Shown here in pieces: positions 1 through 7,427 of a stretch of DNA of 18,500 bases (its first letter is position 1; the number at the start of each line of letters is the position of its first letter). A program made the translations under genes and the position numbers. This DNA comes from a virus (Duplodnaviria; Heunggongvirae; Uroviricota; Caudoviricetes), in IMG/VR virus record IMGVR_UViG_2534682324_000033; one strand, 5' to 3'. The notes under the pieces were generated by a model that searched no databases, was not told where the DNA came from, and was given only the letters and a program-made list of their open reading frames with translations.

Positions 1-553
1 ATGGCCATTGGGATGGGGACTGTTTTCTTTATCTCGACAAAGATGCTACATGCCAATAGTTCAAGTAGTGTTATTGTATCTGTGGTTCTGATGGCAATAG
101 TTGGTATTGTTTCCATTGGTATTTTTAATGGTACTTTATATAGCCTGGTAATGAGTTTTCTCTGGAGCAATACCAGTTTCGGTATACATCGTTTCAAGGT
201 GAAATTAGATACTGCGTATTGTATAAAATATGCCATCCTCGCATTTTTAGCTTTATTACCTTTTCTCGCTGTTGCTGGTTATATTATCTTCGATCAAATA
301 TTAAATGCGTATGATAGTTCTGTGTATGCAAATGATGATATTGAGAATTTACAGCAATTTATGGAAATGCAACGTAAAATGATAATCGCGCAGTTAATCT
401 ATTATTTTGGGATTGCTGTTAGCACCAGTTATTTAACGGTGTCGTTGCGAAATCATTTTATGAGCAACCTGTCACTGAATGATGGGCGTATTCGTTTTCG
501 CTCAACTTTAACATACCACGGTATGCTTTATCGCATGTGTGCGTTGGTGGTGA
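1..553 (+). CDS. hypothetical polytopic membrane protein, partial (open to window start; 3' end replaced by IS3-family remnant)
   Basis: Frame-1 ORF open from base 1; translation dominated by hydrophobic segments (VIVSVVLMAIVGIVSIGIF, ILAFLALLPFLAVAGYIIF); AT-rich composition unlike the prophage genes; frame runs into IS-derived sequence near 554-600. Confidence 0.35.
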
Positions 554-1030
<477 letters not shown>

Positions 1031-2962: not shown

Positions 2963-3275
2963 CGAATTTCTCCCGTGTAGAGGAACAGAGTTAAAAAGCC
3001 GGAAGCGGAATCAAATCACAGGATGACCATCTGCCAGTGGCTGGTCGTAAAAAAAGGCCGCGCCATGCGCAGCCGAAAATAAAGGGATAACGATGATAGT
3101 TTGAGAAAAACAGAAATAACACTTTTGTGGCAAAGCATGGTGCCGGGTGCCTCCCGGTGAATTCAGTATCAGCACCTGAATCCGCGATTACCCCATATTC
3201 CTTCTTGCTGATTGCCCCACCGCACAGGGGGATTCACCATGCAGAAGTGTTTTTAATAAACAGCAAACAAAAAAA

Positions 3276-3443
3276 TCAAGCATTATGCAGGCTGTTTCTT
3301 TTTATCACCGGCCACAGCAATACCATAATGCCGCAGACCAGCACCCCATCCGCCAGCACCGACATGATTCTGCTGGTGAAATCCACCATCACCACCAGAA
3401 ACAGCAGGAGTGCAGCCACAGTCAGGCGCAGTTTTACCGTCAC
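3276..3443 (-). CDS. small hydrophobic protein (55 aa), GTG start overlapping the TerB-like stop codon
   Basis: Hand translation MTVKLRLTVAALLLFLVVMVDFTSRIMSVLADGVLVCGIMVLLWPVIKRNSLHNA; GTG at 3443-3441 overlaps the upstream TGA (3442-3440), suggesting translational coupling; below the ORF-track length cutoff. Confidence 0.3.
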   Translation of the reverse strand: MTVKLRLTVAALLLFLVVMVDFTSRIMSVLADGVLVCGIMVLLWPVIKRNSLHNA

Positions 3444-3872
3444 AGGTAATTCTCCAGACGAAGACCCAGAACACCGGCAATCTCTTCCAGCACCTTGCGC
3501 TCTTCCGGCTCAATTTCGCCGTCTGCCTCCGCAATGGCCACCGCCACATCCAGCACATCTTCCGCTTCACGCGTATCGTGTTTCACATCCTCGATCTCAC
3601 GTAACGCCGCACGACGACCAGTTTTAAAGTTCGTATCCAGCTGACCGATAATGGTTGCGCTAATCGCATTAATTTCTGACGTAAACGCGTACAGCGCAGG
3701 CTGATTACGCAGTACCTGTTCGATCTTCGCTTTCTCGGATGCCTCACATTCACCATCTGCACAGGCCACCAGGTATGCGGCGTTAATCACCACCTGTGCC
3801 AGATCGCGTTTTTCAAACTTTTTAATTTCCGTTGCCGCTCTGCGGGCTTTTTTTACCAAAAATACCAAACAT
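3440..3872 (-). CDS. TerB-like (tellurite-resistance TerB domain) protein; N-terminus out of frame at an A7 run
   Basis: ORF body ...AAYLVACADGECEASEKAKIEQVLRNQ...AEADGEIEPEERKVLEEIAGVLG is TerB-like; ATG at 3872-3870 with AAGGA Shine-Dalgarno encodes MFGIFGKK, then T7 on plus strand (3848-3854) shifts the frame; six A would give one clean ~146-aa ORF. Confidence 0.6.
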
Positions 3873-4041
3873 CGTGACGTTCCTTTGGGTGGGTGAGCCA
3901 ACGCCCGGGAGCGATCTGCCCACAGAGAAAGTCACACTGACCACTCCATAAGCTCCCCCCGAAAGGCTCTGTGGTTGGTATGCGCCGGGCGTGGTGCGGA
4001 TACAAAAAAGGTCCGCAAAAGCGAGCGAGGGAAAATAAGTG

Positions 4042-4118
4042 TGGTGCGTTGTACTGGGTTCGAACCAGTGACCGATTGCTTAGAAGGCAATTGCTCTGTC
4101 CGGCTGAGCTAAAAACGC
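4042..4118 (-). tRNA. argO: tRNA-Arg (anticodon UCU)
   Basis: Hand-folded cloverleaf: acceptor GCGTTTT/ACAACGC (one mismatch), D-stem GCTC/GAGC, anticodon stem ATTGC/GCAAT with loop CTTCTAA, T-arm ACTGG-TTCGAAC-CCAGT, 3' CCA encoded. Confidence 0.8.
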
Positions 4119-4131
4119 AGAATACCGATAA

Positions 4132-4208
4132 TGGACCGCCATCGGAGACTCGAACCCCGCGAAACCAGCTTCGAAGGCTGGCGTTCTATCCCGATGAGCT
4201 AATGGCGG
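4132..4208 (-). tRNA. argN: tRNA-Arg (anticodon UCG)
   Basis: Hand-folded: acceptor CCGCCAT/ATGGCGG, anticodon stem CCAGC/GCTGG with loop CTTCGAA, T-arm CGGGG-TTCGAGT-CTCCG, CCA encoded; D-arm slightly irregular. Confidence 0.7.
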
Positions 4209-4215
4209 TATGTGA

Positions 4216-4291
4216 TGGTGGCCCTTGCTGGATTTGAACCAGCGGCCTGGCGATTATGAGTCGCTCGCTCTCACCACTGAGCTAAAGGGCC
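4216..4291 (-). tRNA. ileZ: tRNA with CAU anticodon (Ile2 lysidine-type or Met; ileZ-like)
   Basis: Hand-folded: acceptor GGCCCTT/AAGGGCC, D-stem GCTC/GAGC, anticodon loop CTCATAA, T-arm GCTGG-TTCAAAT-CCAGC, CCA encoded; first of three tRNAs downstream of the Q-like gene, the ileZ-argN-argO order of Stx-type phages. Confidence 0.75.
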
Positions 4292-7056: not shown

Positions 7057-7212
7057 TTACTCCTCAGGTTCGTAAGCTGTGAAGACAGCGACCTCCGTCT
7101 GGCCGGTTCGGATTCGTACCTCGCAGAGGTCTTTCCTCGTTACCAGTGCCGTCACTATGACGGTAATACAGATGACGATCAGGGCGATTAACATCGCCTT
7201 TTGCTGCTTCAT
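7057..7212 (-). CDS. hokD: Hok-family type I toxin (HokD/RelF-like), 51 aa
   Basis: Translation MKQQKAMLIALIVICITVIVTALVTRKDLCEVRIRTGQTEVAVFTAYEPEE; AAGGAG Shine-Dalgarno 9 nt upstream of ATG 7212. Confidence 0.9.
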   Translation of the reverse strand: MKQQKAMLIALIVICITVIVTALVTRKDLCEVRIRTGQTEVAVFTAYEPEE

Positions 7213-7427
7213 AGCCTGCTTCTCCTTGCCTTTCGGCGCGTAAGAGGCTAACCTACATGTGTCTAGCATGAAATTGGCCTCAGATTAATGTTAGGCGTCT
7301 TGCAGGACGCGTAATGTTAACTGGGGCTTTTCTCTGTCTGCCTTACGGTGGCATGCCCGAGGCAGACAGCCTCAAGCACCCGCAGCAATTCTACTTAACT
7401 CTCGCTTTACCGCAAACCGTTTTTACC

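Follow-up and report, generated by a model that had tools for sequence, protein, structure and literature searches.

A homopolymer frameshift in the tciA-like gene of a two-gene prophage cargo cassette at the site where Stx phages carry stx2AB

The locus considered here is a known and widely annotated pair of phage cargo genes in a known slot, with a fixed homopolymer frameshift in the first gene that resembles early pseudogenisation. It occupies positions 3276-3872, on the minus strand, of an 18,500-nt sequence, referred to below as the window, from IMG/VR record IMGVR_UViG_2534682324_000033. The locus is a tciA-tciB cassette, the presumed late-operon cargo of a lambdoid prophage of O157:H7 type that lacks stx. 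In intact form the cassette encodes a cytoplasmic protein of TerB fold and, translationally coupled to it, a DUF3927 protein with two predicted transmembrane (TM) segments. In the window copy, one extra A eight codons into the tciA reading frame (a +1 change, from A6 to A7) cuts the product of the ATG short at 16 residues. Weak initiation at an overlapping, out-of-frame TTG (3868), or rare slippage, would then be the only way to the TerB body. tciB is intact and has its own Shine-Dalgarno (SD) sequence. Since the body would be accessible only by these routes, tciA here is probably a null allele, or else a strongly hypomorphic one, in early decay.

The tciA-like gene of the TerB family (3440-3872, minus strand) has its ATG at 3872, 8 nt downstream of an AAGGA Shine-Dalgarno sequence (3881-3885, minus) that is conserved in relatives. 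The frame set by this ATG runs through MFGIFGKK into a run of seven As (3848-3854, T7 on the plus strand) and closes at TAA (3824-3822), so delimiting a 16-codon ORF (3822-3872, minus; MFGIFGKKSPQSGNGN). The TerB-like body (…ARRAATEIKKFEKRDLAQVV…ENYL) is in the +1 frame relative to ATG 3872 and ends with TGA at 3442-3440. Deletion of one A, the run being one base longer than in the in-frame A6 allele, fuses the ATG 3872 frame with the body; as it stands, the window copy does not have an intact reading frame from the conserved start of the TerB family. A preliminary description of this DNA had put the ATG out of frame with the body on account of the seven-base run, with all coordinates right, and its proposal that six As would fuse the frames is borne out by phage JLK-2012. 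That phage has the exact A6 allele, ATGTTTGGTATTTTTGGTAAAAAAGCC, which gives MFGIFGKKARR… and a 143-aa product annotated as tciA. JLK-2012 has the same pair, leader and order (Q, tRNAs, tciA, tciB, nanS-p, holin) at a DNA identity of 92.6%, and differs from the window in its in-frame A6 allele and in its tRNA set (Asn/Thr/Gly). Strain SCU-387 and phages Evi and PPyecE_EH1910 are one base shorter at this place and lack the homopolymer (TTCAAAAAGAAAA); each has a 143-aa gene from the equivalent ATG.

Homologues from E. coli, Klebsiella, Serratia, Pantoea and Erwinia phages begin M-F/L-G-x-F/L-x-K-K, as does P1 TciA (MLGILKKK). In a set of 36 homologues that takes in Salmonella as well, M-F-G-x-F-x-K-K is the conserved form, with K7 invariant and G3 conserved in at least 90%. 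Judged by this sequence comparison, ATG 3872 is the ancestral start of tciA. Relatives with a different start and no conserved small ORF had been named as the outcome that would count against the preliminary description, but the relatives have the same ATG and the DUF3927 gene is conserved.

Many complete O157:H7 genomes have the 711-bp region, A7 included, at 100% identity, and prophage copies in E. coli annotated in RefSeq as 'TerB family protein | DUF3927 family protein', with the gene pair, leader and order of the window, also have 100% DNA identity. An exact-pattern scan of IMG/VR, the copies in which come nearly all from different genomes, yielded 48 A7 and 45 A6 alleles, 2 of A5 (both in truncated genes) and one AAAAAGG. 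With a short megablast query, the A6 allele was found at 142 places in 118 complete E. coli genomes. The exact product from TTG 3868 is on at least 1000 contigs, versus 2 contigs with that body in its exact A6 form; many of the A7 copies belong to clonally related O157:H7 genomes and cannot be counted as independent events. Homopolymers are error-prone and there is a database record of a 143-aa A6 form whose body is identical, both of which would suit the extra A being a sequencing or assembly error in a gene that is really intact. However, the identity, A7 included, of many independently sequenced complete O157:H7 genomes, the occurrence of A7 in 48 IMG/VR contigs of several haplotypes, and the number of contigs with the exact TTG product leave that explanation with a negligible probability, and it was rejected.

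A different type of reading is that of the automated annotation. PGAP, the RefSeq pipeline, annotates the gene from TTG 3868 (3866-3868, minus), four bases past the ATG, as a 142-aa 'TerB family protein', WP_001303558.1 (MVFLVKKARR…), and sets no pseudogene flag. The gene would then be functional and near-full-length, with the insertion having swapped the start and perhaps lowered expression. That the exact product is so abundant on contigs, and that the body is open in the window copy and intact in 14 A7 haplotypes with a pN/pS of 0.21, are points in its favor, as is a possible reversion of a nonsense codon dealt with below. On the other side, the TTG is present in all alleles by chance, as part of codons 2-3. 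It overlaps the ATG out of frame and is 12 nt from the SD, so that, with the strong overlapping ATG competing for the same ribosomes, synthesis of the TerB body would probably be low. The product lacks the N-terminal motif, which is conserved out to P1; F2 and G3 are lost. The substitutions private to A7 alleles, which are mostly nonsynonymous and affect the conserved ADGE motif, and an additional nonsense codon in most A7 copies also weigh against it, and a functional gene from the TTG is considered unlikely.

With regard to the latter points, a second lesion, GAG to TAG at the codon at 3736-3734 (minus), is found in 30 of 47 full-length A7 copies. Among full-length A6 copies the body is intact in 32 of 34 and disrupted in the other 2. 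The window retains the GAG; the nearly identical sister allele with both A7 and TAG, just two substitutions from the window, is widespread in O157:H7 and elsewhere, is flagged by PGAP as a pseudogene ('internal stop'), and is the only copy in at least one genome. Substitutions private to A7 comprise 3 synonymous and 7 nonsynonymous changes, one of the latter being D to E within the conserved ADGE, versus 49 synonymous and 9 nonsynonymous among those private to A6 or tract-free alleles (Fisher p = 0.0009), though recombination among paralogous prophage copies (mosaic haplotypes) blurs the A7/A6 contrast. Pairwise pN/pS is 0.34 for all A7 copies and 0.06 for A6 copies. Loss of one copy is likely cheap, given a median of four copies in those genomes that have the pair. 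Early decay of tciA is the favored reading, but there are counterpoints to it: the body is still open here and in the 14 A7 haplotypes, pN/pS among them is below 1, and in one A7 protein the TAG may have reverted to TGG.

Codons 46-48 of tciA (window 3734-3742, minus) are a small hot spot of variation, represented in the protein entries P0004, P0006 and P0013. In addition to the TAG nonsense codon, the variants include two 2-aa insertions (EKFKAKIE, EKVKAKIE) and TGG in one A7 protein, P0004; as the sister allele has TAG at this place, the TGG could be a reversion.

Productive use of the tract is the remaining alternative. The A7 run could be a programmed recoding site, for +1 ribosomal frameshifting or transcriptional slippage, or a phase-variable switch, in either case setting the ratio of TciA to TciB. 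The frame would be restored by a +1 slip or by an mRNA with one A fewer, and from the sequence tRNA-Lys can re-pair at +1 on A7. A5, A6 and A7 alleles all exist across haplotypes, with the A6 version of exactly the same body being on two contigs. However, the classic -1 shift on A_AAA_AAG leads into the wrong frame, the body being read at +1. The codon following the A7 is not a stop, and no SD-like stimulator was seen. A tract of seven As is shorter than those known to slip efficiently in E. coli. The homologues do not share the frameshift, their genes being in frame, and the disproportion of at least 1000 A7 to 2 A6 contigs for an identical body suggests that the tract is probably not switching often. 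Taken in either form, recoding or switching, this explanation is highly improbable, considerably more so than initiation at the TTG. A null or strongly hypomorphic tciA is, accordingly, retained as the working interpretation in what follows.

The second gene of the pair, the tciB-like DUF3927 gene (3276-3443, minus), encodes 55 aa. Its GTG (3443-3441) overlaps the tciA TGA, as GTGA, and it has its own GGAG at 3455-3452 with a spacer of 8 nt to the GTG. The protein has two hydrophobic segments, predicted to be TM helices, split by DFTSR and with basic residues at both ends. It matches Pfam DUF3927 (PF13064; 60.4 bits versus a cut-off of 25, E = 1.7e-16) and phrog_1470, 'TciB-like' (E = 1.8e-29). 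The preliminary description had noted it as a hydrophobic 55-aa ORF whose GTG overlaps the TerB-like stop. tciB is intact in almost all copies surveyed, and its pN/pS against diverged alleles is ~0.3. Rare entries, P0011 (197 aa) and P0064 (170 aa), have TerB and DUF3927 fused by indels near the stop/start overlap, and may represent either misassemblies or natural fusions that are tolerated.

The body of the first gene had been called TerB-like from its letters, and profile and structure comparisons agree. The A6-repaired protein matches Pfam PF05099 (TerB) with 45.7 bits versus a cut-off of 24.4 (E = 9.5e-12), matches phrog_632, 'tellurite resistance', from end to end (1-143 of 143, E = 2e-68), and matches Klebsiella TerB, PDB 2JXU (E = 4e-7). 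An AlphaFold2 model of a 96%-identical A6 homologue, P0001, is all helices with a pLDDT of 88.8, and its top Foldseek matches are TerB-like 2h5n (probability 1.0, TM 0.53-0.62) and then 2ou3. Paired acidic D-G-x5-E motifs are present (ADGECEASE and ADGEIEPEE), and across the 36 homologues E46, G118 and E124 are invariant with D39, G40 and D117 conserved in at least 90%. NCBIfam profiles gave only sub-threshold matches, to DjlA and YmfL.

Membership of the domain family does not carry the family's best-known label with it. TerB of the terZABCDE cluster (R478; Klebsiella 2JXU) shares with TciA the domain family, the all-helical fold and the two acidic DG…E motifs. That cluster confers tellurite, phage and colicin resistance and there the partner is TerC, whereas here it is a 55-aa DUF3927 protein. 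With no terZ/A/C/D/E nearby, the neighbors being tRNAs, DUF3927, STnc100 and a SASA esterase, and with DUF3927 in place of TerC, the label 'tellurite resistance' is unjustified by context, and a ter-operon tellurite determinant was rejected as an identity for the locus. Also rejected was membership of the anti-phage systems with TerB domains, such as Shango and Bunzi: PADLOC models, these included, gave only PDC-S48 for the TerB protein (13.7 bits, E = 0.006) and no match for the small protein.

By homology, the gene pair is the tciA/tciB module named in phage P1. As in a module of P1 type, a full-length TciA homologue is followed directly by a DUF3927/TciB gene whose start overlaps the tciA stop. 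P1 TciA (141 aa) is 40.6% identical over 143 aa, with a similar N-terminus, and P1 TciB (54 aa) has in common with the window TciB the core VDFTS.I.SVL.DG.LV…WP. P1 tciB starts at the tciA stop with a 1-nt overlap, where the window has the GTGA. The starts and stops of P1 tciA, tciB and tciC (35 aa) abut, and tRNA genes adjoin them, as they do the window pair; both pairs are non-essential cargo. The differences are that P1 has a plasmid-prophage context, has tciC and has an unshifted tciA, whereas the window pair is lambdoid late-operon cargo. A 31-aa ORF after tciB (3188-3283) was considered as a counterpart of tciC and rejected, since by eye it is unlike P1 TciC and it overlaps the STnc100 match.

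The pair is not confined to these phages. TerB and DUF3927 genes are annotated as a pair in 807 of 5426 complete E. coli genomes, and the DUF3927 gene is directly 3′ of the TerB gene in lambdoid, P1, N4-like and Erwinia jumbo phages, including Salmonella N4-like phage FSL SP-076 and Erwinia jumbo phage ChrisDB, in which the pair is among tRNAs. In Vibrio, Pseudomonas and Sinorhizobium phages there is a TerB homologue without an annotated small partner. The earlier suggestion of a two-gene accessory module thus holds across phage types, but since the pair has already been annotated and named, the module is not new. The P1 name tci (tellurite/colicin resistance, cell-division inhibition) was given by homology only (PMC4319500), the P1 annotation notes for the tci genes reading 'by homology', and the P1 tci genes were non-essential in a CRISPRi screen (PMC10695390). 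A search of the literature on DUF3927, TerB-family prophage proteins, and nanS-p together with tellurite found no functional study. As a separate observation, tRNA genes adjoin tciA/tciB in four unrelated phage types, lambdoid, P1 and jumbo phages being among them.

The surroundings of the cassette are also pertinent. On the minus strand, the Q antiterminator gene (5197-4502) is followed by a pR′-like promoter (4518-4490; TTGCAA-17-TATATT, 3′ of Q), a strong tR′-like intrinsic terminator (4438-4409; AAACCCGCCCACAAGCGGGTTTTTTT) and three tRNAs (4042-4291; Ile2/CAT, Arg-TCG and Arg-TCT). After them come a leader of ~170 nt, the TerB-like gene, the 55-aa ORF, an STnc100/PasD-like sRNA element (3099-3271) with a terminator (3056-3074), and a SASA/nanS-p esterase gene of 616 aa (2962-1112). 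In VT2-Sakai the order is Q, tRNA Ile/Arg/Arg, stx2A, stx2B, STnc100 (with AsxR antisense), yjhS/nanS-p, S and R, which the window matches with TerB and DUF3927 replacing stx2AB. The statement in the preliminary description that the slot between tRNAs and nanS-p is the place of stx in Stx phages is accordingly well founded. The stx2AB cargo is in the same slot downstream of Q, pR′ and tR′, and its proteins are unrelated to TciA and TciB. Homology between the window and Stx2 phage spans the tRNAs and ends near window 3999; in VT2-Sakai an STnc100 element (L102 7696-7955), with the antisense sRNA AsxR adjoining, comes after stx2B. With the same order, homology ending at ~3999, and STnc100 following both cargoes, tciAB and stx2AB are alternative fillings of one cassette site, bordered on the left by the tRNA array and on the right by the STnc100 element upstream of nanS-p. 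No tciA homologue was found in any record of an Stx-converting phage in the collection searched.

Late-promoter control of the TerB/DUF3927 cassette fits this anatomy; as the cassette is 3′ of the pR′-like promoter and tR′-like terminator, Q-dependent late transcription would be expected. The placing of these two elements between Q and the tRNAs is the short late-transcript arrangement of Stx phages, and there is a second promoter-like site (4329-4301) immediately upstream of the tRNAs. Directly after the last tRNA-Arg is a hairpin followed by T6 (at ~4004-4027, minus), which in SCU-387, JLK-2012 and L109 is a clean, terminator-like 7-bp GC-rich stem; PPyecE_EH1910 has a compensatory change in it (GGTTCGC/GCGGACC), and in the window two mismatches weaken the stem. 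The ~170-nt tciA leader has an ordinary folding stability (z = 0.07), and a scan of it showed no sigma-70-like promoter. The leader at 3873-4003 (minus) is more conserved than the synonymous sites of the gene, with ~2 differences in the 90 nt inspected versus a pS of ~0.2 between A6 and A7 alleles.

Attention is also drawn to some features of the window away from the cassette. Two overlapping ORFs at 1-1030 (plus) are on the opposite strand to nanS-p, and in the identical TR01 locus their place is that of an IS3-family IS1203 (IS629-like) transposase with a programmed frameshift. An Rfam match to sok antitoxin RNA is at 7207-7381 (minus), with a hok-type gene adjoining in the TR01 annotation, and one to DicF sRNA is at 14227-14278 (plus); a 'dicF-like region' is annotated close to the tci genes of P1 as well.

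What an intact module might do can be sketched from its parts. In the best-supported working model, TciB would anchor or partner TciA at the inner membrane, TciA being the soluble, N-terminally basic TerB-fold partner of the 2-TM protein, and the pair would act on membrane integrity or stress in late lytic growth. The sketch derives from the conserved coupling of the genes, from the reported association of TerB with the membrane and the fact that some membrane-linked defence systems use TerB domains (10.1101/2022.05.11.491447), and from DjlA, whose TerB-like domain has the membrane helix on one side and the J-domain on the other (10.1101/2024.08.29.610257). A bolder version, and an improbable one, is that tciAB is a late-expressed, phage-beneficial membrane module, for instance a guard against premature depolarisation of the inner membrane or a defence decoy, with the A6/A7 tract and the SD of tciB allowing a switch to TciB alone. 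In the former case the sources of depolarisation could be pore-forming colicins, abortive-infection effectors or superinfecting phage; in the latter tciAB could be a decoy for host 'membrane surveillance' defences with TerB domains, such as Shango or Bunzi.

From a practical perspective, the RefSeq entry WP_001303558.1 (142 aa, TTG start), which many O157:H7 genomes have, is best regarded as frameshifted tciA, and its annotation merits correction. The cargo slot of Stx-like prophages is now bounded precisely, from tRNA-Arg to STnc100. More broadly, tciA/tciB is a deeply conserved phage pair, shared by lambdoid, P1, N4-like and jumbo phages, and it is in the function of the pair that the residual interest lies.
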